In this document: piece after piece, positions 16,212-45,515 of the stretch
How positions within the stretch are numbered: position 1 is the stretch's first letter
How the letters are laid out: every line of letters begins with the position of its first letter
Source: an uncultured archaeon
Lineage (GTDB): Archaea; Asgardarchaeota; Lokiarchaeia; Sigyniarchaeales; SOKP01
Length of the DNA stretch: 64,000 bases
Assembly (NCBI GenBank): GCA_964486045.1
Contig: CAZALK010000016.1
Coordinates: forward strand, 67,853 to 131,852
Direction of reading: 5' to 3'
Translations under genes and position numbers: made by a program
The notes under the pieces: generated by a model
What the model was told of the DNA's origin: nothing
The model's input: the letters and a program-made list of their open reading frames with translations, nothing else
The model's database searches: none

Positions 16212-16778
16212 TTATTTTCTGATTTTTTTATTCATTTCTAAAGCTAACTTGGTGAAGATATCATCAACACCAGTACCTAATTTAGCACTTGTCTCGTCAA
16301 ATGAACAAGCTCTAATATCTTGTTTAAGAGAATCGGATTCTTCAACAGAAATAATTTTATCATCAATTAGATCACATTTATTTCCAACTAAAACATTGGG
16401 AATATATCCGGATGTGGTTTCTACTTCTTGTTTCCAATTTTCAATATGATTAAAAGTTTCTTTTCGAGTTAAATCAAAAACATAGATGATACCTTGTGTA
16501 CCTTTGTAAAACGCACGCCTGACCCACTTGAAATGATCTTGACCGGCTAAATCCCATATTTGTAAAGAAATAAAATTATTGGTCTCAGGGATTTTCACAT
16601 TTTTCACAAAAAAATTAGCCCCTATAGTAGACTCTACGTTTGACAGGAATCGTTTCTCGAGATACTGAAAGAGTAATGTGCTTTTCCCTACTCCAAAATC
16701 TCCGACAATACATACTTTGTAATAGGGCGTCTTCAAGCTCATTTTTTTGTATAAAGTGAGAAATATATTTTGAATCAA
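16212..16778 (-). CDS. Rab-like small GTPase
   Basis: G1 GDFGVGKS, G2 TIG, G3 WDLAGQ, G4 NKCD, G5 TSAK; no C-terminal prenylation Cys. Confidence 0.93.
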   Translation of the reverse strand: MIQNIFLTLYKKMSLKTPYYKVCIVGDFGVGKSTLLFQYLEKRFLSNVESTIGANFFVKNVKIPETNNFISLQIWDLAGQDHFKWVRRAFYKGTQGIIYVFDLTRKETFNHIENWKQEVETTSGYIPNVLVGNKCDLIDDKIISVEESDSLKQDIRACSFDETSAKLGTGVDDIFTKLALEMNKKIRK

Positions 16779-29556: not shown

Positions 29557-30804
29557 ATGCATTCTCGTCCAGAACTACTAGCTCCAGCTCAAGACTGGAA
29601 TTCATTAAAATTTGTAAAAGGTTTTGCGGATGCAATATATTTCGGTGTACAAAATTATAACATGAGAATCAAGGCTAAAAATTTTGACCGAAAAGATTTA
29701 AAAAAAATTGTAGATTTCTGTCATAGTCAAGATCCTCTTATAAGATCCTATTTAACAACAAATATCTTAATTTATGACGCTGAATTACCAGAATTAGAAA
29801 ATTTAATATCTGAAGCTAAGGAATCTGGGATAGATGCGATAATTGCTCATGATCTAGCCGCAATTAGAATCGCTAAAAAATATAATATGGAATTTCATAT
29901 TTCAACTCAAGCAAATGTTTCTAATATTGAAGCTGCAAAATTTTTTGAAGAATTAGGTGCTGAAAGAATAATATTGGCCAGAGAATTATCGCTTAAACAA
30001 ATCACATTGATAAAAAATTTATTGACTAAGACTAAAATTGAGTGTTTTGTTCATGGTTCTATGTGTACTTCTATTTCAGGGAGATGTTATTTTTCTGCAA
30101 CACTCAGTAATTCTGAAAAGGATTCCGCAAATCGAGGAAATTGTACTCAACCTTGCAGAAGAGAATGGAGAGTAATAGACGATGAGAGTAATGAATTCAT
30201 ATACGATGGTCAAACGTTTATGAACACTAAGGATTTAAATATGATTGAATATATCCCTGAGCTTATTGATGCCCACGTCGATGCATTCAAAATTGAGGGA
30301 AGGATGAAAGATCCTCTTTATGTAAAAACAGTAAGTGAGTGTTATAAAGAAGCTTTAGATGCATATTTCGATAAGACATACAATGAGGAAAAAGTACAGA
30401 ATTGGTTAGAAAGACTTTCAAATGTTTATAATCGTGGCTTTCATACAGGTTTTTACTTTCAACGTCCTACTATAGAAGATATTGAACTACACAAACGGGG
30501 GAATATTTCACCTTATAAGAAGTACTATTTAGGAAAAATTCTTTCCTATGACAAAATTAGTAAATCTGCTAATGTTTTACTTGAGAGCCTAGGTATCCCA
30601 TTAAAATTAGGAGATGAGATAGTTATTACTGGTTCAACAACTTACATGATTGAAACCGTAAAAAAAATGATTTACAAGGGAGAGAAAATAAAAAACATAG
30701 TAAGAAAGAAACACAGTTATCCTATCAAAATTAATTTACCATTGAATGTAGAAGTTAAACTGAACGATAAAATTTATATAATTTCAAAAACAACCCTTTG
30801 TTGA
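29557..30804 (+). CDS. U32 family protein (TrhP/RlhA-like Fe-S hydroxylase)
   Basis: [42 protein letters not shown] and KIEGR motifs. Confidence 0.92.
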
Positions 30805-31508
30805 AAGTATTCTCATTAATCAATAGAATTGCAATGAACTTTGAAAATAAGAGAAAAAGGCTAGTTGGAAGGCTTAGCAAGAAGGAGATTTTAAACAAAC
30901 AAGAAGTGATTAACGCAATGTCAACAGTCCCCAGACATCTTTTTATCCCAAAGGCTGCAGAATCTTCAGCATATATGGACACTCCCTTATCTATAGGATG
31001 TAACCAAACAATTAGTGCTCCTCATATGAATGCTATGATGTGTGAATACTTAGAATTAAAAGAAGGAAATAAGATACTTGAAATTGGAACAGGTTCGGGG
31101 TATCATGCTGCTCTATGTGCAGAATTAGTTGCTCCGAAAGGAACGGATAATCCTGGACATGTGTATACGATTGAGCGTCATGAGGAACTAGTTGAAAATG
31201 CGAGAAATAGTCTTAAACAAACAGGATATGCTAGTAGAGTCACAGTAATTCATGGTGATGGCACTATGGGATACTCTAAAGAAGCACCTTATGATAAGAT
31301 TTTAGTGACAGCTGCGTCTCCCAAAAAAGTTCCTCCACCTTTACGAGAACAATTAAATAATGGTGGAATTCTCTGTATTCCAACGGGTTCTAAAGGTTAT
31401 GCCCAAGATTTATATGTTATCAGAAAACATGGTGATAACTATGAATCGAAAAGAATAACGGGAGTTCGATTTGTACCGCTTATCGGGAAGTATGGGTTTG
31501 AACCGTAG
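30798..31508 (+). CDS. pcm: Protein-L-isoaspartate O-methyltransferase
   Basis: [32 protein letters not shown] and VRFVPL motifs; true start may be about 30834. Confidence 0.95.
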
Positions 31509-32125: not shown

Positions 32126-34303
32126 TTAGAAAGTCTTTATTTTGAAGTGGAATTCAAGGCTCTTATCAATTTTGAAGAGAAAAGTAACATTTAATCCTTG
32201 ATAGATCTCTTTAAAACCTTCATCTGTAAATGCATTAGCGATTATCGGGAATTTAAAAATTTTTTTTGGATCTTTATCACTTATAATATCAATTTCTATA
32301 CGTAAGTCATAAGATTCATCAAATGCTTTAAATTGTGTACCTTTATATTCAAATGGTTCTAGAAGATCTTTTTCTAAATCACCTTTTAATTCTATTTGGT
32401 CACATTCCCATTGGAACTTATTTGTGTCCCCGTTAAAGAAAATAGGAAAATCTATTGCTACATTTAGATTTTTGATTATTCTCTTTAGGATTTCTTCCTT
32501 CCCGGGGATTTCCTCAAAATTTATTCGAATTCGAACCTCAATCTCGTTATCTTCCACATAAATATCTTTAGTAACGCGAACAGGGTTTCTATCATTAGTT
32601 TCAGTGTCTTTAATGGTACCGATTTTTTCCATTTCTAATATAGCAATTTTTCCTTCTTTCTCACTGCTGGTTACACGAAAATCACCATCGACAAAATCTC
32701 CAAATTCGAAATACCTATCGGACTGGAGTTTATCAAGGGATACATCATCATGCAAAAATCTAAGACGTAGCATGCTCCTTCTAAATCTGTCGACTAACAC
32801 ATATTTAGCTTCTAACTTTTTACTGTCATGGTAAGCCTCTGGCCACCGTGTTAATGTATTTAAAATATTATATGATTTTGGCTTATAATCAAGCTCAAAA
32901 ATAGTGCCCCCGTCACTAGGATTTATATACAGATTATAAATATCGGATTCAATAATATATTCTGTTTTACTGTCTTTATTGAAATCAACAGGAGTTACGT
33001 AAATGTATGACGTAAGATTTGGATTAATAAGTGCATTTATAGTATCCATAATCTTCTCAGCATTTATTAAGTGTGTATAGACAGAAAATCTTAAGAATTG
33101 TAAATAAACTCCTCCAAATAAACCATGCCAATAACAATCATTACATTGAGCTTTATATATTTCATCCCATGCTTCATTAATTTTCTTTAAAATTATTGAA
33201 ATTACGCTATCTTTCTCCACTTTTAGAAGGCTTTCTTCGGTGTAAATAAGTTTATTCCTAACATATAACATTTTCTTATGCATATTATTGGATTCTGGAT
33301 ATTTTACAAGGAAATATCTCCAAAATCCTCCCTTTAAAAATTGATATATTTCACTTTCGGTTTCATCATCTAGTAGAGTCTTTCTAATTTTTTTAAATTT
33401 CTTGCGAATTTGAGTGGGTAAAACCCATTCTTCCATTCTATCGTAGCTTGCGGTCGGAAGGTAAATTAAACTCTTAGCCGGGAACTTTTCCATATATTCT
33501 GTTAGTGTAATAGATTTAATCCAAGAATTACTTCTAACTTGTTCAAATAAAGCGGGAATAAAAGGTCTCCCATTATCACCTTCTTGATGTCCTTTTCCTT
33601 CCACATAACATATTTCATGAGTTGTCCCCCATCCACCCATCTTTTCAGCGTCAGAGATTAATAAAGCAATTCTATCTCCTTTTTCATCTGCTGCTTTGCG
33701 CAAGTAATCAACTGACATATAAGTAGGTTTCCAAGGTGTTAAATACCTTAATGTCTCATTGATTGGAAAGACTCTTAAGGTTTTTCCTTCATCTTCAGTA
33801 ACATAGGAATAAAGTGTATTCTCCTCAGTAATTCCTGTTGATCTAAAATGATTATCATCAACAATTACATACTTAAGACCAACATCATTAAGAAAAGAGG
33901 GATAGGCGGGTTCCCACACTCGCTCTGATAACCATGCTCCTTTTACTTCAATGTTAAATTCATTATTTATCAAATTCGATAATTTTTTTATTTGAGCGAT
34001 TCTATCTCGATAGGGTATAATAGCAAATATAGGCTCGTAGTATCCTCCACCTATTATCTCTATTTGCCTTCTTTTTGCCATGATTTTTAATTTATCGATA
34101 AATTCCGGTTTATTTTCCAAAAACCATTCTAGTAAATTACCTGAAAAATGAAGAGTAAATTTAACCTCTGGAAATTGAAAAATATTATCAATTAATGGTT
34201 TATATGATTTTTCATATACATCTTCGAAAATGAAATCGATCTGTCCAATAGGTTGATGAAAATGAAACACTATTGGAAGGTTTATGCTTACTTCCTCATT
34301 CAA
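32126..34303 (-). CDS. GH57 alpha-amylase/4-alpha-glucanotransferase
   Basis: HFHQP, GGGYYEPI, WLSERVWEP, DAEK, ASY..MEEW and AQCND.YWHG.FGG motifs. Confidence 0.93.
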   Translation of the reverse strand: MNEEVSINLPIVFHFHQPIGQIDFIFEDVYEKSYKPLIDNIFQFPEVKFTLHFSGNLLEWFLENKPEFIDKLKIMAKRRQIEIIGGGYYEPIFAIIPYRDRIAQIKKLSNLINNEFNIEVKGAWLSERVWEPAYPSFLNDVGLKYVIVDDNHFRSTGITEENTLYSYVTEDEGKTLRVFPINETLRYLTPWKPTYMSVDYLRKAADEKGDRIALLISDAEKMGGWGTTHEICYVEGKGHQEGDNGRPFIPALFEQVRSNSWIKSITLTEYMEKFPAKSLIYLPTASYDRMEEWVLPTQIRKKFKKIRKTLLDDETESEIYQFLKGGFWRYFLVKYPESNNMHKKMLYVRNKLIYTEESLLKVEKDSVISIILKKINEAWDEIYKAQCNDCYWHGLFGGVYLQFLRFSVYTHLINAEKIMDTINALINPNLTSYIYVTPVDFNKDSKTEYIIESDIYNLYINPSDGGTIFELDYKPKSYNILNTLTRWPEAYHDSKKLEAKYVLVDRFRRSMLRLRFLHDDVSLDKLQSDRYFEFGDFVDGDFRVTSSEKEGKIAILEMEKIGTIKDTETNDRNPVRVTKDIYVEDNEIEVRIRINFEEIPGKEEILKRIIKNLNVAIDFPIFFNGDTNKFQWECDQIELKGDLEKDLLEPFEYKGTQFKAFDESYDLRIEIDIISDKDPKKIFKFPIIANAFTDEGFKEIYQGLNVTFLFKIDKSLEFHFKIKTF

Positions 34304-34418
34304 TTAATTCTCATCTCTTCAATAATATAGGATTTAAAGGTTTTGAGCAATTCATGAGACTATCAAGTTATATTGAATACTAAATTTAATATAATTTGAA
34401 ATTTAAAAATATAAAGAA

Positions 34419-36830
34419 TCATAAATTTAAAAAATGATCTAAATCAAGTTGTTTTTCTTCAAATTCTTTTCTATTTATTTCTTTAAAAGTAAAAAATTCA
34501 TTGAAATTTTCTTTAATTAAACCTTTTTGCTTCAAATCCTCCTTTAGTTCTTTAGTATTATGAGTGTTAATGGAGGATAAATCATAGCTATAGAGAGCTT
34601 TCAGTAAATCCAAATCATGATCGTAATTAAATTCAATTATTTTATCATAGAGAGCTTTATCTTTACCTTCTAAACCAATGAGATCTGCTCCTAAATTATG
34701 ACTAATAACTCTCACATTCTCAGGATACTTAATCCTATTGTCTATTGGTAAGTGTTTAACTTCGCCATGCAAAAACCACCTAGTTCCAACAATAAATAAG
34801 AAAGTGTCTACTGATTGATATTTCTCAATCTTATCGATAAGGTTTTCATAACTAATATCACTAGTAAAATCAAATTGAGTACTTTTTATATGATCTAAAT
34901 TCTTAGAGTTTAATTCTAGACATTCTCTTAAGTTCTCCCCGGTTTGAGTGTTTAATAACCTTTGATGTATAAATTGATTATCTTCAAGTATTAATCCATC
35001 AGGTCTTCTTTTATCAGGATATATATTTGGTTCTGCAAAATACTTCTGATTTGGAAGTTTATTAATTGTTCTTGTTATAAGAGAGTTTATATTTAAATGT
35101 ACAAATGACCCCATTTCAAGATTTTTGTCAATAGGAAACCGTTCTCTATGAAGTTCAATATTATTCTGAAAAACGTCTCTTTGAGAAATATTTGAAACAG
35201 AAGTTGAACTTACACCATTCTTTTCTGCAATTTCTTTTATATTTAACTTTGGATTCGCAATGTCATTGATAATATTATTCTGCGTGGTCTTAGTAATTGA
35301 TTCATAAGCTTTCCATGTGTTTTCATATTCATGCTTAGATATCTTTTTTTTAGCCAACTTGCAAATATAATCTGTAGATACTTTAAATTGTCTCCCAATT
35401 TCGTTTAAAGACCGAGGATTTAGTTTGTTAATTTCGTTTTCTATGGTTTTTGTTATTTTCAAGGCAAGTTCGTTTGGTATTTCATTCGTTAGTGGAGCCC
35501 ATATTTTATCATGAAGGTCTTTAGGGATAATGTGTTTAGCAAGTCTTTTAATTGTATCTGGTCCTACATCAGGGAAATCTTTATGAATGTCTCTTAGTGT
35601 TCTGGGATGTTCTTTTACACTTTCATCCTTAATAGTTTTCAATATATCATTTTTAATTTCATCAGGTATTTTTTTTATTGCTGGCCATAATTCTTTATGT
35701 TTAGCAGGATAGAGTTCTCTCGCTAATTCCATAACATATGTGTGAGACACACCGGGAAAGTCATTTGAAATGCTCCTTAAAGAATTAGGATTTTCTTTTT
35801 GGACTTCTAAATCCAAACACTTCTCTATTTCTTTTTTTACTTCGCTAGATACAGTACCACTTGTCGACGGCCACATACTTTTATAAACATCTTGAGATAT
35901 TTCACCCTTGGCTATATTATCAATCATTGTTTTTGATACATTTGGAAAATCTTTCGCAATCTTATAAAGAGAATTATGTTGACTTCCTTTATTATAATTC
36001 TCTACTTCTTCCCTTAAGCGTTTCATGACATTTTCTTTAGTTTCAGTATCTAATGTGAGAGCAAATCTCTGTTGATGCTTGTCTTTGTTATGATTATAAA
36101 CTTCATTTAAGGATATATTTCCAACAGTTTTTCGACTGATGGATAAACCCATTTCTTTTAGTCTAATTGAAATTTGTGTTTGAGAGAAATCTGAATTTTC
36201 GATTCTATCTTTTATGAAGTTGGAAATTCCTTGATTCTTATTAATATCTTCAATCTTTCTGATAATTTCTGGATTTTTTCTATTTCTTCCAACCCAATCA
36301 ATGAAGTCCTTTCTAAGGTTCTTTCCGTAATTCGCATATTTTCCAGTTTCATTATGGTAGGAGATAAATATGTTTGTAATTTTTCCCTCAAGTAAATTTC
36401 TGTATTCACTATCATTACTTTCTTTTATAATTTCCTTTGGGTAATCTTCTATTTTTTCTTTTTCAGATTTCCTATTATCTATAATGGTATCATTTTTCTT
36501 CTCAGAACTGTCTTTTTTCCAATCAATTTCATCCCATTTATTTATAGTTTTCTTCTCGGAAATATCTTTATTCCAATCAATCTCACCCCATTTGCTCACA
36601 CTTTTCTTCCCGGAATTATCTTTATTCCAATTAATCTTATCCCATTTATTTTCATTTTTTTGTTTATTATGCTCCTTTGTACCATTATTGGGTTTAATAT
36701 CATTTTTTGACTCATTTTCATTTACACTTTTAGATACATCCTTAGATACTTCTTTATCTTTATCAATTTTCACGATTTCCTTATTATCTTTAACCGATTC
36801 CTTAGCCTTATTTTTTATATTACTTCCCAT
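34419..36830 (-). CDS. Tandem-HTH-repeat protein with putative C-terminal PD-(D/E)XK nuclease
   Basis: About six ~60-aa repeats (SL..I..DFP.VS...I..LAK......W) followed by G..H...E......RPDGLI...FDFT; charged, repetitive N-terminus. Confidence 0.6.
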   Translation of the reverse strand: MGSNIKNKAKESVKDNKEIVKIDKDKEVSKDVSKSVNENESKNDIKPNNGTKEHNKQKNENKWDKINWNKDNSGKKSVSKWGEIDWNKDISEKKTINKWDEIDWKKDSSEKKNDTIIDNRKSEKEKIEDYPKEIIKESNDSEYRNLLEGKITNIFISYHNETGKYANYGKNLRKDFIDWVGRNRKNPEIIRKIEDINKNQGISNFIKDRIENSDFSQTQISIRLKEMGLSISRKTVGNISLNEVYNHNKDKHQQRFALTLDTETKENVMKRLREEVENYNKGSQHNSLYKIAKDFPNVSKTMIDNIAKGEISQDVYKSMWPSTSGTVSSEVKKEIEKCLDLEVQKENPNSLRSISNDFPGVSHTYVMELARELYPAKHKELWPAIKKIPDEIKNDILKTIKDESVKEHPRTLRDIHKDFPDVGPDTIKRLAKHIIPKDLHDKIWAPLTNEIPNELALKITKTIENEINKLNPRSLNEIGRQFKVSTDYICKLAKKKISKHEYENTWKAYESITKTTQNNIINDIANPKLNIKEIAEKNGVSSTSVSNISQRDVFQNNIELHRERFPIDKNLEMGSFVHLNINSLITRTINKLPNQKYFAEPNIYPDKRRPDGLILEDNQFIHQRLLNTQTGENLRECLELNSKNLDHIKSTQFDFTSDISYENLIDKIEKYQSVDTFLFIVGTRWFLHGEVKHLPIDNRIKYPENVRVISHNLGADLIGLEGKDKALYDKIIEFNYDHDLDLLKALYSYDLSSINTHNTKELKEDLKQKGLIKENFNEFFTFKEINRKEFEEKQLDLDHFLNL
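36497..36650 (-). repeat. Three 54-bp (18-aa) coding tandem repeats
   Basis: KWDKINWNKDNSGKKSVS / KWGEIDWNKDISEKKTIN / KWDEIDWKKDSSEKK. Confidence 0.85.
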
Positions 36831-36866
36831 TTTTAAACCTCAATTTCTTTTAAGGAAATTTAATAT

Positions 36867-38831
36867 TTATTCAAATTTTTGTTCTAATTCTTTCTCATCG
36901 TCAGTTCTACTTAAATATCGTTCACTATTGGTTCCGTTTATAATTAAAGCATATCTAGGAGAGAGATTGAGTAGCATTTCCCTCTCTTTTACATTTCCTG
37001 TGAATAATTCATTACTTGGGTATCCTAAACTAAAGAGTATTTTAATTGCTGCAGAATCTATTGCACTATCAAGGAGTAGGTAAGGTTTTTGTTCTGCAAT
37101 TAATAATCCTAGACCTTTAGATCGACATTCTTCAATAGTTTTAGAAAATATCGCATTGATTCTGTTTTTCATGATAAATTCAGCAGATTCGGGATCATGA
37201 TCCCTCGATTTTCCTATTACTCTGTGAGCTTCGTCTATTGTAATAAGATGTCTCAATTTATTAGAATGATCAAAAGGAGTCAACGTTTCTATCATTTGAA
37301 ATATTAACATAGTGAGTAAGTGCTGTTCTTTATCATCACAATCTGTTAAATCAATCAATATTTTGTCTCCCTTTCTCCATCTTAAAAACCACTCTGGTAT
37401 TTCCCATTGAAATCTGAGAGTCTTTTCGAGCTCAAGGTTAGTAAATAATTCATCTATTCGACGCCTGAAAGCAGTTAAAATTGTTTTTTGAGTATCTGGA
37501 TCATATGGTTTTGCTCTTATGTTATTCTCAACGCAATTAAAAAACTCTGTGATCTGTGAAGGAAAGGCTCCAAAATCAGAATAGCATCTTTGAAGTGTTT
37601 CAGAAATTATGACGGGTCCTACATATTTTAATCCTAAACAAGCTGCTAAAACACTACTATTACCAGAAATCGACTTTTTTATTCTATTACCCGTTATTAT
37701 ATAAGGAACTTTAAATCTCTCAGAGGGGAACTTATATGTATCGACCATGGGAAGATCTGCTCCTAAATCTGGTTTTACAAGATTTATAATTAATATTCCC
37801 ACATCTGGTCTTTTGATATTCAATTCTTTTATTATTATTTTGATTAATGTTGATTTTCCTGTACCACTTTTTCCAAAAATATTCAAATGAGTATTCAAAC
37901 AATCAATTTCTATTGTAGCTTTTTCATAACTAAGAATACCATCTATCAGTTTGCTTCCAAGAATTATATAGTGTGAGTCATTCTTAAGTATAGGAGAATT
38001 AATCAGATTTCTATTCACAAGGATAGGTGGTTTTGGTAAAGGGAGATCAATTGGGATAGTAAAATCAATCTTTTCCGGTGTAATATAATTAGGTAAAAAT
38101 TCTCGAGGAACTGATTGGTATGAATCAATCTTAAAGTTAGATCTTGTGGGAAATACATCACAAATTAAAATATCTTTCCAATTATATGGTGATAATAATT
38201 CAAAATCTACTTTTATATGTGGAGGGATAGACATATCTGAAATTAGATATTTCAACACTGCTCTATATAGTGGTTTTAGGTTCTCGATTTCCACGGAATA
38301 ACCTTTACGGGGCTTTAAGCTAACAAAAATTTTTAACATATACCGATCAATTTTTACTGGTTTAAGCAAATCATCTCTTTTCCATAAAATAAACATGTTT
38401 AAATCCAGTTTTCTTCGTGGAGTTCTATAGTAATTAAGTAATTTCCTAAGAAAATGTAATTTTAGGGGAGGATTAGACGGAATTTTAATTTCATAAAGTG
38501 GTACTTTTATCTCTAAGTATTTTAAATAAAGAGGAAATGTCCTAACCAATCCATCTAATCCTTTGAATTTTTCTTGTAGAGACAATAGTAGAGCATACCC
38601 TAGTTCTTTAGCCTCTAAATCAGTCTTAGCAAATAAGAAAAAATCCCATGAAAAGCACTCATTTATTTTAAATTCCACTCCGTATGTAGTGCCATCCCCG
38701 AATAGATCACATAACCAAGAGGAATTCAGTAATTGATTAAACTTTGCTTTAGGATCAACAATTAATTCATTCTTTACGCATGGTAATGTCTGTGTAATGC
38801 TTATCCTTGACTGATATCCCATAATTTTCAT
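36867..38831 (-). CDS. HerA/VirB4/FtsK-superfamily (DUF87-like) ATPase
   Basis: HLNIFGKSGTGKST Walker A, ITIDEAH Walker B, ECRSKGLGLLIAEQKP arginine-finger/Q motif. Confidence 0.88.
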   Translation of the reverse strand: MKIMGYQSRISITQTLPCVKNELIVDPKAKFNQLLNSSWLCDLFGDGTTYGVEFKINECFSWDFFLFAKTDLEAKELGYALLLSLQEKFKGLDGLVRTFPLYLKYLEIKVPLYEIKIPSNPPLKLHFLRKLLNYYRTPRRKLDLNMFILWKRDDLLKPVKIDRYMLKIFVSLKPRKGYSVEIENLKPLYRAVLKYLISDMSIPPHIKVDFELLSPYNWKDILICDVFPTRSNFKIDSYQSVPREFLPNYITPEKIDFTIPIDLPLPKPPILVNRNLINSPILKNDSHYIILGSKLIDGILSYEKATIEIDCLNTHLNIFGKSGTGKSTLIKIIIKELNIKRPDVGILIINLVKPDLGADLPMVDTYKFPSERFKVPYIITGNRIKKSISGNSSVLAACLGLKYVGPVIISETLQRCYSDFGAFPSQITEFFNCVENNIRAKPYDPDTQKTILTAFRRRIDELFTNLELEKTLRFQWEIPEWFLRWRKGDKILIDLTDCDDKEQHLLTMLIFQMIETLTPFDHSNKLRHLITIDEAHRVIGKSRDHDPESAEFIMKNRINAIFSKTIEECRSKGLGLLIAEQKPYLLLDSAIDSAAIKILFSLGYPSNELFTGNVKEREMLLNLSPRYALIINGTNSERYLSRTDDEKELEQKFE

Positions 38832-38939
38832 TCACCATTTCACATTGTTTTCTTCTATTTTACTTTAGAAGAATATGATAAAAGTATTTAAAGAAAAATA
38901 TAAGGGAGATATATGAAAAGATCTTGACTATTGAAGATG

Positions 38940-39366
38940 TCAAACTACAGCCACTAACAGGGGGACTTTTTTTAAATTAACATTTATTTAAGGACATATA
39001 AAAACACAAAACTTTATTATTTCTATATGTTTTAATAGATCTCTCATCTATATGAATATAAGTGGGAGAGATTTCTAAATAACTTATTTCAACTACATGA
39101 CTATTACTACATGAACCATAAAAATAATAGTCATGATGAGGATTGAATATTCGATGAAATTTTCCGAGTTTTATGGATACTACATTTTGTTCGGAGTTAT
39201 CTGATTCTTTGGGAATAACTTGAACATCGAGTCTTTCAATTTCTATCAGTCCCACTTTTTCCATAAATCTATTTAGTAATCCAGAGGTTCGATCTAAAAC
39301 TACAAATCCAGGAAGTCTAAATCTTTCAAAGAACCTTTTTTTCACTTGGGACTGAATCGTGCTCAT
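38940..39366 (-). pseudogene. Degenerate duplicate of the 3' third of the adjacent TFB-like gene
   Basis: MSTIQSQVKKRFFERFRLPGFV vs MSTIQFQVKKRIFERFRLPGFV; reads MSLNKC*FKKSPPV across TAA, aligning with MTLGEFFPRKGPPL. Confidence 0.85.
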
Positions 39367-39430
39367 CCGTATATTACAGATTTTTTTTTCACCTAAATAA
39401 AAAAAGACTATATCCTTAATACTTAAGTTG

Positions 39431-40675
39431 TCAAGTTATATTTACCAGCGGAGGTCCTTTCCGTGGAAAAAACTCACCTAAAGTCATGTCTTCCCACACG
39501 TCCATATTACTCCTAACCTTTTTGGTAGATCTCCTGCTCCTTTGATTATGATTAAGAACTTCTAAATAGCATAGCGTAATAGTTTCATTATCACCAACAC
39601 ATCCAGTGAGATAATGCTCATTATGGGGATTAAATACCTGCTGAGCGTTCCTTAATTTAACTGATACTATATTTGTACCTGAATCATCATCAGGCTCTTC
39701 TTGAACTATTTCTACTTCAAGCTGTTTAACTTCTAAAACCCCTACTTTCTCCATAAAGCCTTTCAATAGATCAGAGGATCGTACCAAACTTACAAATCCA
39801 GGAAGTCTAAACCTTTCAAAAATCCGTTTTTTTACTTGGAACTGAATCGTACTCATCTTTATATTCAACAAGTCGCAAATTGAGCTCACACTAATCACAT
39901 CTTTATAACTGCATAGTGCTGTTATCGATGTACACAGCCCAGCAATCACATCATCAGTAGTATTTTTAATATTATCCCATAATTTTGACAATATTTTACG
40001 TGAAAGAAAGTAAAATGACATATCAAGCCCAAAATGCTCCGTAATTTCCAATATTTTCTGAGCTACATAGTCTTGCCTGTTCCTCTTTGTATATTCCGGC
40101 AAATATTGCCGAACTTGAAGAATAAAGTTATTAAATTCTTCTTTGGAGAGCAATGAGATATTTATAATATCTTTCCTCTTAATTGCGATATTCTTAAGCT
40201 TCAAAACCATATAAATAATTATTGTTGAGAGCTTCTCAGGATTCCTATACCTTGAACCTACCTGTAATTGCGGAAATATTTCCCGAAACTTCTCTCTTAT
40301 ATGACCTTCACAGGTCCGTGGTAAGGTTAAACAATCGAATATCCTAGATATTTCCTTTATAGCACGAACTTCCGCAGATTCTTTATTTGAGAGCTGGGAA
40401 TTGTACCTACTTATCCTCTTAAGTTGGTATGATTGAGGGTGCAAACTTCTTTCCCTAACCGTGCCGATCTGAGTAGCGCCGAACTGAACTGAATACTGCA
40501 CTACTTCAGTATTATAGGGTTGATCATATTGTAGCTTCTGAAACGGGAGTACCACCCCACATCTTCGGCATACATACCCTTGAACTTCATCGGCAATATC
40601 ATCAGAACCACAAAGATCACATTTCAATCCAGACTGATCCAATGGTTTACTGCTATAGACTTTATTTACGGTCAT
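39431..40675 (-). CDS. Divergent transcription initiation factor IIB (TFB) paralog with C-terminal extension
   Basis: N-terminal CDLC..CRRCG zinc ribbon, two cyclin-fold-like helical repeats, terminal SICDLLNIKMSTI HTH. Confidence 0.75.
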   Translation of the reverse strand: MTVNKVYSSKPLDQSGLKCDLCGSDDIADEVQGYVCRRCGVVLPFQKLQYDQPYNTEVVQYSVQFGATQIGTVRERSLHPQSYQLKRISRYNSQLSNKESAEVRAIKEISRIFDCLTLPRTCEGHIREKFREIFPQLQVGSRYRNPEKLSTIIIYMVLKLKNIAIKRKDIINISLLSKEEFNNFILQVRQYLPEYTKRNRQDYVAQKILEITEHFGLDMSFYFLSRKILSKLWDNIKNTTDDVIAGLCTSITALCSYKDVISVSSICDLLNIKMSTIQFQVKKRIFERFRLPGFVSLVRSSDLLKGFMEKVGVLEVKQLEVEIVQEEPDDDSGTNIVSVKLRNAQQVFNPHNEHYLTGCVGDNETITLCYLEVLNHNQRSRRSTKKVRSNMDVWEDMTLGEFFPRKGPPLVNIT

Positions 40676-40697
40676 TTTTTTCGATCACTATTTTTTA

Positions 40698-40729
40698 ATT
40701 TCACTAAAAAAACTTATTTCACTAAAAAA
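40698..40729. promoter_or_regulatory. Two 14-bp direct repeats upstream of the TFB-like gene
   Basis: ATTTCACTAAAAAA at 40698-40711 and 40716-40729. Confidence 0.4.
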
Positions 40730-40782
40730 TATAAGTGACGGAGTATGCCTTTTAAACCTATCTATCACGATCAAATTCTATG

Positions 40783-40927
40783 AGTAGAGCGGTTGTACTC
40801 CCCAAATTGAGTTTTGACAAAAAGGTAGAATCCCACTTTTTTTCATCCTATTTTCATGAGGTGCCTTTGTGGGTATCTTTACCTCACTCAACAAGACTAT
40901 TCCAATGAAAATTAGAGCCCGTCTACT
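40783..40927 (-). ncRNA. Candidate structured RNA (nested long stem-loop) upstream of TFB paralog
   Basis: Nested complementary pairs AGTAGAGCGG/CCGTCTACT, TTGAG/CTCAA and AGGTAGAATCCCAC/GTGGGTATCTTTACCT; GC elevated over flanks. Confidence 0.4.
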
Positions 40928-41095
40928 TACTGGTCAGATTTCTTTACTGTTTTCTAAAAGTAGGAGATAGATATTATTTCAAATATGTTACTTGACTTCA
41001 GAAACCTAAACATCGACTTTTTTTTTGAAATTTTATTTGTCCTCCAGCACTTTTGATGAGATTAGATTTTCCACCATAATTACTTTTTTTTAATA

Positions 41096-41872
41096 TTAAT
41101 CTCGAAATTTCTTCAGTTTTTTAAATTGAGGTTTTCTCCTTCGACGAGTTAAATCTTTATAATGTCTTTTTCTGAACCGAGAAACACCCATTTTGTTTGA
41201 GCGGATGTTAAGCATAATGTAGTATATGCCTTTAAATCCATATTTGAAGATATTATAAGCGATGTATATCAAAATATATAAGAAAACTTCATGGAAGAAG
41301 GCCAAATTAAAATTGTGTATTATTCCCGAAACTAAAATTATCGATATTATTACAAGAAAAATCTGGTATAATGAGTATCTTACATCATTATAAAAAGATT
41401 TTGGGATCAAGTATAAATCCGCGAATGAGGGTGCTGCTGAGAAGATAATTGAAATCATAACAAATAGATAGAAAAGAAAAAACCAGAAATCTATATGGGG
41501 ATTAGAGATTTGACCCCATAAAAAGAAAAATAACCAAAAAGAAAGGTATAGAGGGGCAAAACCTATCAGAAATCCCTGTAAAAAGGATATTCTTTCATCT
41601 CTGACGTTAACTTGACCCCCATAACCAAAATATTTATCGGGCTTATCCAGCTTAACTCTATGTACTAGAGAAATACTTTCAATATGAGTATTTGTGATAA
41701 GACACATTATGATATGGCATAGTTCATGGACTACAATCCCAATAATACTTACACCTTGAAATATTTTAATGAGAGGATCAGGTGTGTAAGTCAATAGAAC
41801 ATAAGAGATCACAACTGAAAAGAGCATAAAACCGAGGATATAAGGAAGTTCTTCAAACATATTTTTAATCAA
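41096..41872 (-). CDS. Membrane zinc metalloprotease (M50B-like)
   Basis: VHELCH HExxH motif, IGFAP, PSFADL; multiple TM segments. Confidence 0.75.
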   Translation of the reverse strand: MIKNMFEELPYILGFMLFSVVISYVLLTYTPDPLIKIFQGVSIIGIVVHELCHIIMCLITNTHIESISLVHRVKLDKPDKYFGYGGQVNVRDERISFLQGFLIGFAPLYLSFWLFFFLWGQISNPHIDFWFFLFYLFVMISIIFSAAPSFADLYLIPKSFYNDVRYSLYQIFLVIISIILVSGIIHNFNLAFFHEVFLYILIYIAYNIFKYGFKGIYYIMLNIRSNKMGVSRFRKRHYKDLTRRRRKPQFKKLKKFRD

Positions 41873-41982
41873 ATTAAACCTATTTAAATAAAAAAAAAGT
41901 CAGCAAATCCATTTTTTTCTTTAAATATTCTTAAAAGAATTTTAAATTAATATTAAAACCATCTACTAAACTGTTAAAAACA

Positions 41983-43017
41983 ATGTTAAAGAAAAAGATT
42001 TATTTATTATTTATAGTCTTGGGACTCACGTTAAACCTTCTCCTTTGTTTTAAAACTCCATATTTATTGCGAGATGATAAAGGGAATGAAAAAAATAGTA
42101 AAAAGATTAATACTAGTCAAACCGATCTCCCAGATAAAGTATATACTTTTTTAACGCCCACTGACATAAAATTATTTGAAAACTTAGAATTACAGGCTCA
42201 ATTTATATATTTCATTTATATTGAATTAGTAATGCCTAGAGATGTGTCGACTATGAGAATTCGACTCTGGGATCCTGATAACAAGCAATATGATATATTC
42301 GAGAGTGAGATGTTCTTTAACCCTTCATACGGTAGATACTTTGAAATTCCTTTTGGTACGGCAATAGGTGGAAATTATTCTATAGAATTTTATGTTGAAG
42401 CTGTGAAGAATGTAAACATTCATATTATGATGGAAAAAGGGCCAAAATGTCTGTTTGATAAACTAGATTTGCAAGATCCACCTAAAATGATTTTCTATCA
42501 AGTCAAAAGTTATCATAGTGGAATGAGTATTGAACATAATATAACCCTCGAAACGGATATAATGTATAGATTTTATATAGGAAGAGTTTCAGCCATTTCG
42601 ATTAATGAAAGTAATATTGTTTTAATGGATTATAAAATCACAAATCCAAATGAAATAGAATTTGACATGTACAATAATGCTACTATGCAATCCATTGACG
42701 GGATCAATGGATTTAATTTCGGAACCGCAACGAGTGGGATATTTAATATCAGAATTAACATTTACTGCATTGTACCTTATGTAAATATCGCCTACACAAT
42801 AATTAAAGACTATCAAATAAGTGATATCATTGAACCGAATCAAACTAATAATGATCCACCTCCAGTTAACAATACAATTTCGAGGATATTCATATTCCCT
42901 ATGGAGTGGACAATAGGGATAATAATATTTGGAGGTGGTTTATTCTTAGGGTGCTCAATTTTGATCCATTACCAAAAAAGGCAGAACTCGGGTAAGTTTA
43001 AACCTAAGCTTAAATAA
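41983..43017 (+). CDS. Membrane-anchored extracellular protein with two repeated beta domains
   Basis: Signal-like N-terminus, internal repeat (FGTAIGGNYSI / FGTATSGIFNI), C-terminal TM and basic tail. Confidence 0.7.
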   Translation: MLKKKIYLLFIVLGLTLNLLLCFKTPYLLRDDKGNEKNSKKINTSQTDLPDKVYTFLTPTDIKLFENLELQAQFIYFIYIELVMPRDVSTMRIRLWDPDNKQYDIFESEMFFNPSYGRYFEIPFGTAIGGNYSIEFYVEAVKNVNIHIMMEKGPKCLFDKLDLQDPPKMIFYQVKSYHSGMSIEHNITLETDIMYRFYIGRVSAISINESNIVLMDYKITNPNEIEFDMYNNATMQSIDGINGFNFGTATSGIFNIRINIYCIVPYVNIAYTIIKDYQISDIIEPNQTNNDPPPVNNTISRIFIFPMEWTIGIIIFGGGLFLGCSILIHYQKRQNSGKFKPKLK

Positions 43018-43124
43018 TTTATTGAAATTTATATTTTTTCTATAAATTTTTCCAAATTTTTTATTTATATACTCGGAATGATAAAACTTACTAACCTAAA
43101 TTAAATATATAAGAGGTACAAAAG

Positions 43125-43787
43125 ATGCAATTATTAAAAAATAATGAGCTTATGAAGTACAAGCTTAAAATCAAAAATTTTAAACTCAAATTGAATCAAA
43201 ATAATTTAACTATTGTTGCTCAAAGAATGGGATGGGAAGGACAAGGTACAAAGAAGAATCCGATCATAGTAAATCCCAGAAGAAACTTACCTTTAAAATT
43301 AACGTTGATGAATATTCACCTGCATTTAAACTTGAAAAATCTTACTTTAACATCCCTTAACTTATTTCGCTGCAAACATCTTTCAATTGAAGATTGTAAA
43401 ATAAATAATTTAAATTTAAACAGATGCCAAGAGAATACCATTAGGAACAATTCTATTATCAGAATTGAATCTTTCCTGAGTAGATCTAATAATTTTGAGA
43501 ATAATGAAATCTTTAATGTGTTGAACCATAGATTTGAGAGATTAGGTTTTAGACTATTCTTAGTTTTTACTCTAATATTTAGCAGCTTAATGATTTATTC
43601 AGGAATTAGAGGAATAGCAAATAGAGAGACAAATTGGGTCACATTTTACTTATTGATTTTGGGGATCACTGTAACAAGTGCAATTTCTTACTTCTTGATC
43701 CTGCATTTCAAAATGAGGAAGTTACAACCGAATCTTTTTAAAGAGAATTTCTCAATGACGCGTTTAAATCAATTATTCTCAAATTAA
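43125..43787 (+). CDS. Short parallel beta-helix (NosD-like) membrane protein
   Basis: GQGTKKNPIIV motif (cf. GTGSSSDPYVI in 49336), Asn-ladder repeats, 2 TM segments. Confidence 0.55.
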   Translation: MQLLKNNELMKYKLKIKNFKLKLNQNNLTIVAQRMGWEGQGTKKNPIIVNPRRNLPLKLTLMNIHLHLNLKNLTLTSLNLFRCKHLSIEDCKINNLNLNRCQENTIRNNSIIRIESFLSRSNNFENNEIFNVLNHRFERLGFRLFLVFTLIFSSLMIYSGIRGIANRETNWVTFYLLILGITVTSAISYFLILHFKMRKLQPNLFKENFSMTRLNQLFSN

Positions 43788-43800
43788 GGGAAATGATAAA

Positions 43801-44157
43801 ATGAGTCGACGAGATTATTACAGCTTTCAAAGAGGGAGGAGAGGATCGAAAGTTTTTTGGATTTTTTTTGGGATAGTGGCTTTTGCGGCTATTTATTTCC
43901 CATTTTTTGGGGGAAATTTAAAATATCAAATTGGAAATGCTGTATCTGGCATCTTCGACCAAATAGGTAGGTTTCTTTTTTTTGGGGGATTAATACTCTT
44001 GGGAATCGGATTTCTCCGGATGTTTACCGGAAGTTTTAAAGGTATCAAATTGGCACTTTTAGGAGTTATACTTTTGTGGGTTGCTATTAACTTTTTTGAT
44101 CCTGGTTTATGGGGAATTTTGACTCATGGTAAAGGAGTTTCGCAGGGATATCACTAG
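43801..44157 (+). CDS. Small 3-TM membrane protein (VirB2/pilin-like size and pattern)
   Basis: Gly-rich hydrophobic hairpin with a short basic loop (RMFTGSFKGIK). Confidence 0.55.
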   Translation: MSRRDYYSFQRGRRGSKVFWIFFGIVAFAAIYFPFFGGNLKYQIGNAVSGIFDQIGRFLFFGGLILLGIGFLRMFTGSFKGIKLALLGVILLWVAINFFDPGLWGILTHGKGVSQGYH

Positions 44158-44190
44158 AAATCAATTTAAGAAAAAAAAAATAAAAAAAAA

Positions 44191-44421
44191 TTAGATTATT
44201 ATTCCTATGCGGAAGTATTTTATCCCCGTGTACATTCCCGTTATCCCTACAATAACTAAACTAATGATGATAACTTTAAAGGCCGATCCCCTATTGAATC
44301 TCCCTCCAAGGAATAGTATTCCAAATCCTGCGATAATTCCTATAAATCCTAACAAAGAGAAAAATGCAATGAGGAATTCAAATCCATCCGCTACACTTGA
44401 TAAATATGTATCAGCATCCAT
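44191..44421 (-). CDS. Small 2-TM membrane protein (VirB2/CedA1-like pattern)
   Basis: Amphipathic N-helix, TM, basic loop GGRFNRG, second TM; GGAG not obvious but codon use is coding-like. Confidence 0.55.
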   Translation of the reverse strand: MDADTYLSSVADGFEFLIAFFSLLGFIGIIAGFGILFLGGRFNRGSAFKVIIISLVIVGITGMYTGIKYFRIGIII

Positions 44422-44610
44422 ATTTTTTCACTATTTGGAGTTTAAAAATTAGATCCGTCAGTCTTTTATAAAAGAAAAAAAAGTCTAAAAATGTCTTAAA
44501 CATAGGCATTTTAAATAATATCATTTCATTGTAAATCAATTCTAATTCTTTTTTTACCTATACTCCTCAGATAAATAATAACGATTAATCATAGAGGAAA
44601 TACCCTTATA

Positions 44611-45515
44611 TCACTTTCTCCATCTCAACTGCAAGTCATAACACTGCTTAATTAACTTTAAAATGTCATCTACTTGGGTAATGTTTTTTATGTTTGTAAA
44701 AAGATTTACTCTTCCCCATCGCATGGATTTTGCTAATGGTTCTAATTCGATTTTACTAACTGAGGAAGTGTCAGGTTTAACTTCCCCGAACTTAAGAAAT
44801 ATTCTAATTTGTTTATTATAAGGTTTGACCTTTAATGTACAAAATTCAGTATCTCTCTTATAAGTAACACTATTAATTTTTTTGTATAATACTTCAAATA
44901 TATCATCTCCTAAGTCTAATATTCCGTTATGTAACGATAGTATTATCTTTTCAAAAGTAGGTAATTTTTCTATTAAGAAATTAGTATTCTCATTTACACG
45001 ATTAGAGGTTTTTTCTTCATTAGCTTCAATTGGGTAAGACACATCTATCTCGTGCGATTTTAAGACACTTAAATCGTTTCCGATTTTAATTATTGTTTCT
45101 TCTAAATGTTGTTTATCAAATTCTTCTCCTATTTGACCTGTGATCAATTTTATAAAACTATCGTTAGGGTTTAAAAGTAAATAATCAATTGCCTCTCTTA
45201 CTTTTTGTTTAATGGTTAGATATTTGTATAATTTCGTTAATTTTCCTAATTTTACACTATCTTTAGAAATATAATTTAAAATTTAGCCTCAACATATATT
45301 TTATTTTCATCCGTCTTTAGTTCATAATCTACTTTACCGCCACTGGAAGTCGTTCTTTCCCTTTTTACTTCTTCTATATTATAAAGGTCCCAACCTAAAC
45401 TCTGTAAGATCGGATCTATAATACTCCCTCTAGTATTTGATTCGTCTTTTAGCTTACCTTTTACATTTTCTATCCTCTCGATAAAAATTTCTAAACTCTC
45501 TTTATCTAACACCAT
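44611..45515 (-). pseudogene. Disrupted HsdR-N-like PD-(D/E)XK nuclease with DUF5655-like C-terminal domain
   Basis: ESNTR..IIDPILQSLGWD...VDYEL....VEAK stops immediately; another frame resumes LNYISKDSVKLGKL and continues into ORF 44611..45147. Consistent with internal deletion and frameshift. Confidence 0.7.

Follow-up and report, generated by a model that had tools for sequence, protein, structure and literature searches.

An Asgard archaeal protein with six predicted helix-turn-helix units and a restriction-endonuclease-like C-terminal domain

The DNA analysed here is a window of 64,000 nucleotides (nt) from an uncultured Lokiarchaeia archaeon (Sigyniarchaeales; SOKP01), which corresponds to positions 67,853-131,852 of contig CAZALK010000016.1 in assembly GCA_964486045.1. 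At 34419..36830 (-) of this window, the list of open reading frames (ORFs) and the translation place a gene for a protein of 803 amino acids (aa), referred to here as the HTH-nuclease gene after the helix-turn-helix (HTH) array and the nuclease-like domain predicted for its product. The same frame had been reported in a first-pass annotation of the window and is exact by coordinates and translation. The start codon is ATG, with a GAGGT motif 8 nt upstream of it, and the spacing between the stop codon of a HerA-type ATPase gene and the HTH-nuclease gene is 36 nt. At E < 1e-50, 27 homologs of the protein were identified, the best at 72% identity, 23 of which span at least 82% of its length with identities of 46-99%. 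All 27 are from Asgard sources (Promethearchaeota, 'Hodarchaeales' and marine sediment), and relatives are encoded at 18 genomic loci, every one of them in Promethearchaeota/Promethearchaeia. The 803-aa ORF is a genuine, conserved gene.

The N-terminus of the protein (aa 1-135; 36426..36830 (-)) is rich in Lys, Glu and Asn and is probably disordered. Within it, a self-diagonal scan revealed W-rich short repeats of the type KWDxI(D/N)WxKD (aa ~60-112; 36495-36653 (-)), which give the top self-diagonal score of 75 at an offset of 36 aa and which appear at the DNA level as a 54-nt tandem repeat, D2, at 36491-36659. In orthologs, the equivalents of aa 1-135 differ in length and in repeat type, and this region appears to evolve rapidly. 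Short tandem repeats of the KWDxIDW, PRNKIE and EDPFEEYNNF types were observed in the N-termini of the orthologs P0008, P0011, P0012, P0015, P0016 and P0020-22. A 199-aa ORF at 36484-37083 (+) runs antisense to the end of the HerA gene and to the low-complexity N-terminal part of the HTH-nuclease gene; it has the look of a shadow ORF in repetitive sequence rather than of a gene.

The N-terminus is followed by a conserved N-domain (aa 140-200) and a first HTH unit, U0 (aa 201-257), which together occupy 36060..36413 (-) and were delimited by alignment and model. In the homolog alignment the residues Y158, N167, F176, I196, I202, N212 and R255 are invariant. This module was modelled as helices plus a beta-hairpin with a predicted local distance difference test score (pLDDT) of 81-93, and it is present two to five times in long paralogs. 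Then come four tandem repeats of ~62 aa, U1-U4 (aa 262-506; 35313..36047 (-)), recognised by repeat scores, model and fold matches, and a last unit, U5 (aa 510-565; 35136..35303 (-)), which is of the same type as U0 and was assigned from the model, fold matches and weak profile hits. U0 and U5, with an alignment score of 40 to each other, form a second unit type flanking U1-U4.

For the internal repeats, an ungapped BLOSUM62 diagonal scan with 30-aa windows was compared to 20 shuffles of the sequence. Diagonal scores of 57-68 were obtained for the offsets 61, 63, 124 and 309 aa, whereas the maximum over the shuffles was 53 (n=20); the repeats are real, and self-BLAST of the protein left them undetected. 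The mutual identity of U1-U4 is 29-39%, and these repeats terminate in an invariant Trp (W320, W382, W506). When each unit is compared to its orthologous counterpart, the identity is 53-65%, and the array is therefore old, with every unit individually constrained. An AlphaFold model of aa 140-565 (pLDDT 83.7) contains six units of about four helices each (U0, 201-257; U1, 262-320; U2, 324-382; U3, 386-444; U4, 448-506; U5, 510-565). The predicted template modelling score (pTM) of this model is only 0.36, so that the arrangement of the units relative to each other is uncertain.

By VIA-align, single units were matched to small HTH, Myb, homeodomain and recombinase-HTH domains with Z scores of 5-6.2 and root-mean-square deviations of 2-3 A over 43-63 residues, among them the GcrA DNA-binding domain, Tc3 transposase, c-Myb, resolvase HTH, LexA, BrxR and TopoVI-A. 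U5 matches the GcrA domain, Tc3 and the resolvase HTH at Z 5.6-6.2, and the matches of U1-U4 include winged-helix domains. On the profile level, U5 is weakly matched by Sigma70_r4 at aa 526-549 (E 0.006) and by YlxM at aa 503-548 (E 3.6e-4); the HTH profile hits of the 803-aa protein (Sigma70_r4, HTH_6, YlxM) are all below threshold, with 16.6 bits as compared to a Pfam cut-off of 24.1 bits. Several orthologs have precomputed hits to Sigma70_r4, HTH_11 or HTH_6, and the paralog L012 clears the Pfam gathering score of HTH_23 (37.7 versus 24.6 bits). A Foldseek search with the repeat array against PDB and BFVD gave no hit at E <= 0.001. Taken together, model and fold matches support the repeats as small tri-helical HTH/Myb/homeodomain-like units with a putative role in DNA binding. 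The first-pass annotation had described about six tandem HTH modules and quoted five peptides from them; six tri-helical units are found in the AlphaFold model and by fold search, and all five peptides were located within U1-U5.

The C-terminal domain (aa 566-803; 34422..35135 (-)) is predicted from the model and fold hits to be restriction-endonuclease-like, with a PD-(D/E)XK fold. The model of this domain of ~240 aa has a pLDDT of 86 and a pTM of 0.82, and its elements, assigned by DSSP, follow the order alpha-beta-beta-beta-alpha-beta (in model numbering H15-36, a short strand at 44-45, E58-61, E96-102, H107-117 and E122-128). The sequence RRPD611G marks the start of the second strand (58-61), so that the acidic position of the PD motif is filled, and D654-F-T656 is positioned on beta3. 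When an exhaustive structural aligner with re-ranking was used, PD-(D/E)XK nucleases made up about 49 of the top 50 neighbours, at Z 5.0-5.7, a range in which (Z < 8) a match may reflect a common arrangement of elements. The highest scores were obtained for the R2 restriction-like endonuclease (RLE) (5.7), McrC (5.5), Can2 (5.5), AF1548 (5.4), Bax1 (5.3) and LmuA (5.3), and further matches include NucC, BsaWI, Bse634I, EcoRII, Cfr10I, BglII, PA endonuclease and Cap4. With Foldseek, nothing was identified in PDB or BFVD at E <= 0.001, the best hit being MspJI at E 0.012, and the ESM Atlas gave sub-threshold leads only (0.81-0.83), some of them to PD-(D/E)XK families.

Scans of the 803-aa protein against Pfam, NCBIfam and PADLOC gave no match of the C-terminal domain above threshold, 17 domain-only relatives likewise had no above-threshold hit in Pfam, and phmmer and profile searches of PDB sequences with the domain gave no match; literature searches found no description of the family. 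The uniform list of nuclease hits and the placement of the motifs make the assignment to the PD-(D/E)XK fold likely, short of certain, and we hold this fold to be the probable one with good confidence. Judged by these searches, the domain is a previously uncatalogued restriction-endonuclease-like family. Both a restriction-type fold and the lack of a named family had been proposed in the first-pass annotation, and they hold for the predicted model, at modest Z scores, and for the library and PDB sequence searches, respectively.

As another explanation, an RNA-binding protein of the kind that combines helical repeats with a RAP domain (FASTK-like) was considered, in which binding of RNA would fall to the units and its processing or retention to the nuclease-like domain. 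Among the fold matches are the FAST/RAP module of FASTKD4 (Z 4.5) and, from Toxoplasma gondii, a mitoribosomal protein (9g6k_Li, Z 4.2), which may be RAP-like; the winged-helix arrays of SelB, which bind SECIS RNA, are among the best Foldseek hits of the array and are non-significant. However, the first two scores are no higher than those of dozens of DNA nucleases, the best matches of the units are DNA-binding HTH, Myb and recombinase domains, and the partners HerA and TFB are DNA-related, which leaves this explanation highly improbable.

The putative active site of the domain comprises H578 (codon 35097-35099), E600 (35031-35033), D611 (34998-35000), D654 (34869-34871), K667 (34830-34832) and K670 (34821-34823), with T656 (34863-34865) at the position of the canonical Lys; all codons are on the (-) strand. 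The motifs G574..H578, E600, RRPDG (D611) and FDFT (D654, T656) are invariant or near-invariant among 24 full-length homologs, in which E600 and D611 are invariant and residue 654 is always Asp or Glu. A search with phmmer against 1.84 billion representatives yielded 123 sequences related to the domain, of which 97 have E < 1e-10, with lengths of 58-3037 aa and usually with the domain in C-terminal position. Among about 100 diverse members, position 600 is Glu in 68% (Glu or Asp in 73%, Asn in 19%), D611 is conserved in 77%, D/E654 in 69%, T/S656 in 96% (of about 107 members), K670 in 80%, Q672 in 79% and N705 in 90%. The G..H, E, RPDG and FDFT motifs and a substituted catalytic Lys had been noticed before in the single sequence, and the wider family bears out both points. 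We read T656 as genuinely replacing the canonical Lys, whose part is likely taken over by K667 and K670 of the helix that follows. Variant motifs occur in the PD-(D/E)XK superfamily, for example in BglII, BamHI and Cfr10I.

When 36 genomic copies of the domain were sorted by genomic context and scored for these residues, a split was revealed. H578, E600, D611, D654, K667 and K670 are all retained in 25 sequences from ~22 loci, which comprise the orthologs at a GH57 locus described below, all HerA-adjacent proteins, HTH-rich paralogs and small standalone proteins. In the other 11 sequences all six are replaced together: 578 by Tyr, Asn, Ile or Thr, 600 mostly by Asn or Asp, 611 by His or Asn and 654 by hydrophobic residues, mostly with no Lys at 667 and 670. 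This inactivated clade retains fold residues such as Q672 and N705; T656 and G612 are kept in most of its members. That the six residues are either all kept or all lost as a set is what is usually seen for a functional site, and it argues for a working active site in the subgroup to which the 803-aa protein belongs.

A different reading of the same domain is that of a non-catalytic DNA-binding regulator, or chromatin or transcription factor, in which the nuclease-like domain would serve for oligomerisation, for binding of a partner (HerA, TFB) or for recognition of a DNA structure. This is consistent with the Thr in place of the canonical Lys and with the linkage of the family to TFB-like genes and, in one protein, its fusion with a TFIIB repeat (see below). 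About a quarter of the wider family lacks the acidic residues, so that the fold can be retained without catalysis, and TIP26, a TBP-interacting protein with the same fold which is not a nuclease, is among the matches at Z 5.0. However, the strict retention of the six candidate residues in one subgroup, together with their loss elsewhere only as a set, is hard to explain without a joint function, and in the full-length homologs E600 and D611 do not vary and position 654 is Asp or Glu throughout. The regulator is considered somewhat unlikely.

Nine of the 11 inactivated copies adjoin a Ras-GTPase, and the same losses are seen at L048 and L051. The GTPase, of ~515 aa and of the Ras family, is encoded convergently and adjoins inactivated copies at roughly 8-10 loci; it was observed (Pfam Ras, 143 bits) tail-to-tail with degenerate copies at L020:10641-12188, L041:13883-15430, L043, L045, L052, L044, L042 and L014. 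Several of the GTPase-adjacent copies are fused to or located beside giant proteins with LamG/DUF2341 domains; at L041 and L020, degenerate copies are fused to such proteins or follow them. The GTPase and the degenerate copy may form a signalling pair. In the window itself, a 188-aa Ras-family small GTPase is encoded at 16212-16778 (-) (Pfam Ras, 159 bits); it is related to the GTPase domain found in the 515-aa proteins, at 32-37% identity. The genome of the window contains two further copies of the nuclease-like domain: a 249-aa standalone paralog with all six active-site-type residues (G000:C5:26532-27143 (-)) and a weak match (E 5e-8) within a 926-aa ORF (G000:C15:37520-37978 (-)).

Upstream of the HTH-nuclease gene, a HerA/FtsK-type P-loop ATPase of 654 aa is encoded at 36867..38831 (-), identified by a Pfam DUF87 hit of 30.7 bits, above the cut-off; the two genes are probably co-transcribed. 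It is preceded by a TFB-like paralog of 414 aa at 39431-40675 (-), weakly matched by models of the TFIIB zinc ribbon and of a TFIIB subfamily, and by a 129-aa ORF at 38977-39366 (-), which on sequence comparison is a duplicate of the C-terminal part of the TFB-like protein (45% identity to its aa 274-401). At the DNA level, this tandem duplication of the C-terminal third shows up as a direct repeat of 177 nt. A 258-aa protein at 41096-41872 (-) has six transmembrane (TM) segments by hydropathy, an HExxH motif and a weak Peptidase_M50B hit. In this co-oriented string the order is M50-like protease, TFB paralog, 129-aa TFB fragment, HerA and, last, the HTH-nuclease gene. Divergently transcribed from it are genes for three proteins recognised by hydropathy scans: a 344-aa protein with a signal or anchor sequence (41983-43017 (+)), a 220-aa 2-TM protein (43125-43787 (+)) and a 118-aa Gly-rich 3-4-TM protein (43801-44157 (+)). 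Outside this group, a ~236-aa gene at 30798-31508 (+), read from its sequence without a library scan, codes for a putative PIMT-type protein methyltransferase.

A similar gene organization was identified elsewhere. L058 carries a TFB-like gene, genes for homologs of the 118-, 220- and 258-aa proteins and a HerA that shares 54% identity with that of the window, and this HerA is directly followed by a 1358-aa protein which terminates in the nuclease-like domain and carries a W-rich N-terminus as in the window; the two N-termini are 37% identical over 81 aa. At L047, the same membrane genes and a HerA are found, with a 755-aa protein containing an HTH array and the domain 4.8 kb away. At L053 (=L013) and L054, HerAs 28% identical to that of the window are located directly upstream of domain proteins of 1599 and 1673 aa. 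HerA is thus directly upstream at four independent loci, including the window, and nearby at a fifth, and the HerA-like ATPases of the domain-linked loci are 24-54% identical to each other. The recurrence of HerA, TFB and membrane-protein homologs at these loci indicates that the neighbourhood is not due to chance. In the 1673-aa protein (L054:3636-8657, G008:C76), the domain is located mid-protein (aa 707-946) and is followed, at aa 1021-1098, by a significant match to the TFIIB cyclin repeat (69.7 bits) and then by an HTH, a fusion which ties the domain to a TFB-like component. A PADLOC 'mad8' hit of the neighbouring HerA was rejected as evidence for defence, because plain ABC transporters match the same model. 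Neither the HerA/TFB/membrane module nor the inactivated clade was part of the first-pass annotation.

From these observations, a site-directed DNA endonuclease, composed of an HTH array and a divergent PD-(D/E)XK domain and acting with a HerA translocase, is proposed for the 803-aa protein, a proposal to which we give an even chance. The six HTH units would read an extended DNA site and thereby position the endonuclease domain. E600, D611 and D654 would form the metal site, a Lys of the following helix (K667 or K670), instead of Thr656 on beta3, would act as general base or electrostatically, and H578 may assist catalysis. In the genome of the window, the protein would most likely form an ATPase-nuclease pair with the hexameric translocase of the HerA type, with a possible role in DNA processing of a defence-like or DNA-transfer-like kind. 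The cooperation with HerA is proposed by analogy with HerA-NurA and with HerA-DUF4297. In an extended form of this proposal, which we regard as unlikely, the protein would be the DNA-recognising and DNA-cutting subunit of an undescribed Lokiarchaeial membrane-associated machine, built from the HerA-type translocase, the TFB paralog, the M50-like protease and the small multi-TM proteins and serving either a Ced- or conjugation-like passage of DNA through the envelope or the destruction of invading DNA.

Several observations weigh against the endonuclease acting with HerA. The canonical Lys of the (D/E)xK motif on beta3 is replaced by Thr656, and the (D/E)-x-K pattern is therefore absent; the fold scores are modest, with Z < 6 and a Foldseek E value of 0.012 or worse. 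HerA adjacency is seen at only ~5 of 34 distinct loci, and most orthologs (L003-L006) have no adjacent HerA and an upstream region of their own, so that for the orthogroup itself the HerA link rests on the window and on the related protein at L047. In a search of 34000-45500 for DNA repeats as candidate binding sites, only coding repeats came up, and the vicinity yielded neither a DNA target nor a methyltransferase or repeat array. For a DNA methyltransferase, this holds for a distance of ~8 kb, the remainder of the genome not having been searched.

The distribution of the gene is that of a clearly accessory one. A profile of the domain matches 30 of 68 sampled genomes of one family, with 1-8 copies per genome, and ~120 domain-bearing clusters are formed at 50% identity. 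In 28 other families of the phylum no match was obtained except for fragments with E~1e-4 and internal stops in f24, which were set aside as noise. Within the genus of the window, 11 of 22 genomes have a domain match and only ~4 of 41 a full-length ortholog. In three genomes (G255, G228, G195), a GH57 gene lies ~90 bp from a divergent, conserved gene for a 576-aa protein, without a nuclease gene. At L003-L005, the HTH-nuclease gene is located between these two genes with its own upstream region of ~330 bp, and at L006 it is located beside GH57. In G207, the same spot is occupied by an ABC exporter pair plus MarR. In the window, the spot corresponds to the spacer 34303-34419 upstream of the GH57 gene; its upstream synteny differs, the 576-aa gene being located on another contig (C22:1116-2837).

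This presence or absence at one fixed spacer suggested another explanation, a stand-alone selfish or restriction-like endonuclease which would cut alone at a long site read by the HTH units and would spread or defend independently of HerA. In the GH57 tree, the nuclease gene is present in four of five members of one well-supported clade and in one of five of the other, a pattern which requires at least two gain or loss events; this patchy occupancy, the rarity of full-length orthologs in the genus, the multi-copy nature of the domain family and the separate upstream region of the HerA-less orthologs would all fit such an element. However, a comparison of empty and occupied GH57-spacer junctions identified no target duplication, inverted repeats or conserved junction, no relatives of the protein family or of the HerA neighbour were found among viral contigs (IMG/VR), and a methyltransferase partner was not seen. 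The HTH units are stably conserved across orthologs rather than diversifying, and the divergence of the nuclease gene (63-70%) roughly parallels that of the flanking GH57 (75-78%). The data from the spacer fit vertical descent with losses as well as mobility into an empty site, and the independent element is considered decidedly unlikely. The ordinary ABC exporter with MarR that G207 has at the same spot also speaks against such an element, and on account of this cargo a reading of the GH57 hotspot as a defence island was rejected.

What is new here is a PD-(D/E)XK-like family whose Lys has apparently changed position, whose HTH array is unusually long and whose HerA/TFB/membrane context is specific to Asgard archaea, while the combination of a reader with a restriction-like nuclease (FokI, R2) and the pairing of HerA and nuclease genes (HerA-DUF4297) were known already. 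The family offers a testable prediction for the active site, that of a PD-(D/E)XK nuclease in which the Lys has moved to the next helix, and the inactivated paralogs provide a natural control set. Should cleavage take place at a long site recognised by the six HTH units, the protein would represent a new kind of natural long-site nuclease, and should it work with the HerA/TFB/membrane module, this would point to an unstudied apparatus for DNA processing or DNA transfer in Lokiarchaeia. To our knowledge, almost nothing is known about gene transfer and defence in Lokiarchaeia beyond catalogues.

By sequence comparison, the 803-aa protein is not a member of any named family, and likenesses to known systems are found in architecture, fold and gene order. 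The first-pass annotation had compared it to TALEN and homing endonucleases. This analogy holds for the architecture only and not for the repeat type: TALE repeats of 33-35 aa are near-identical, with hypervariable di-residues and one bp per repeat, whereas here HTH units of ~62 aa, with the mutual identity given above, are each conserved as orthologs. As to a mobility of the homing type, empty and occupied alleles of the spacer exist, the insertion site showed no junction signature, and no relatives were found in viral contigs.

FokI consists of three N-terminal HTH-derived recognition subdomains and a separate C-terminal PD-(D/E)XK cleavage domain. Like this type IIS enzyme, the 803-aa protein has several HTH units and then a separate C-terminal nuclease domain; unlike it, the units number six, the Lys is off the (D/E)xK position and no methyltransferase is nearby. 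No sequence similarity to FokI was detected, and FokI is absent from the listed fold matches. From type II/IIS restriction-modification systems in general, the locus differs in that no cognate DNA methyltransferase is present within ~8 kb, the part of the genome searched. R2 proteins combine N-terminal Myb and zinc-finger DNA readers with a C-terminal RLE, and the RLE (9nl3_A) is the best structural neighbour of the domain (Z 5.7 over 129 residues, 19% identity), a Z score which is tied with those of many PD-(D/E)XK nucleases. In contrast to R2, neither a reverse transcriptase nor a CCHC motif is present here. Bax1, which is associated with XPB, and McrC are PD-(D/E)XK nucleases partnering ATP-driven DNA translocases, and they resemble the domain in fold (Bax1, Z 5.2-5.3 with 19-20% identity; McrC, Z 5.5). 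However, the ATPase here is HerA and not XPB or McrB, no kinship was found on the sequence level, and the N-terminal architecture is different.

For the membrane-associated genes, the crenarchaeal Ced system of DNA import (CedA/A1/A2/B/D), which is associated with control by TFB3 (bioRxiv 10.1101/2024.09.27.615246), is the system to be compared. A HerA/VirB4-class ATPase and small multi-TM proteins are common to both, and a TFB paralog is present here. However, the sole match is a hit to CedD at the level of the Walker A motif (E 1e-4, 21 bits as compared to a cut-off of 600 bits), no homology to CedA or a pilin was shown, and Ced has no known HTH-nuclease component.

In the anti-phage pair HerA-DUF4297, the nuclease, which is of PD-(D/E)XK type, becomes active when it assembles on HerA (PMC11291478). 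The likeness is in the adjacency of the HerA and nuclease genes, as identified in the window and at L058, L053 (=L013) and L054, with the genes near each other at L047. The 803-aa protein differs in giving no DUF4297/Cap4 match in Pfam or PADLOC, with the Cap4 fold reaching Z 4.0-4.4, and in its array of six HTH units, and the module to which it belongs contains a TFB paralog and membrane proteins in addition to HerA and the nuclease.

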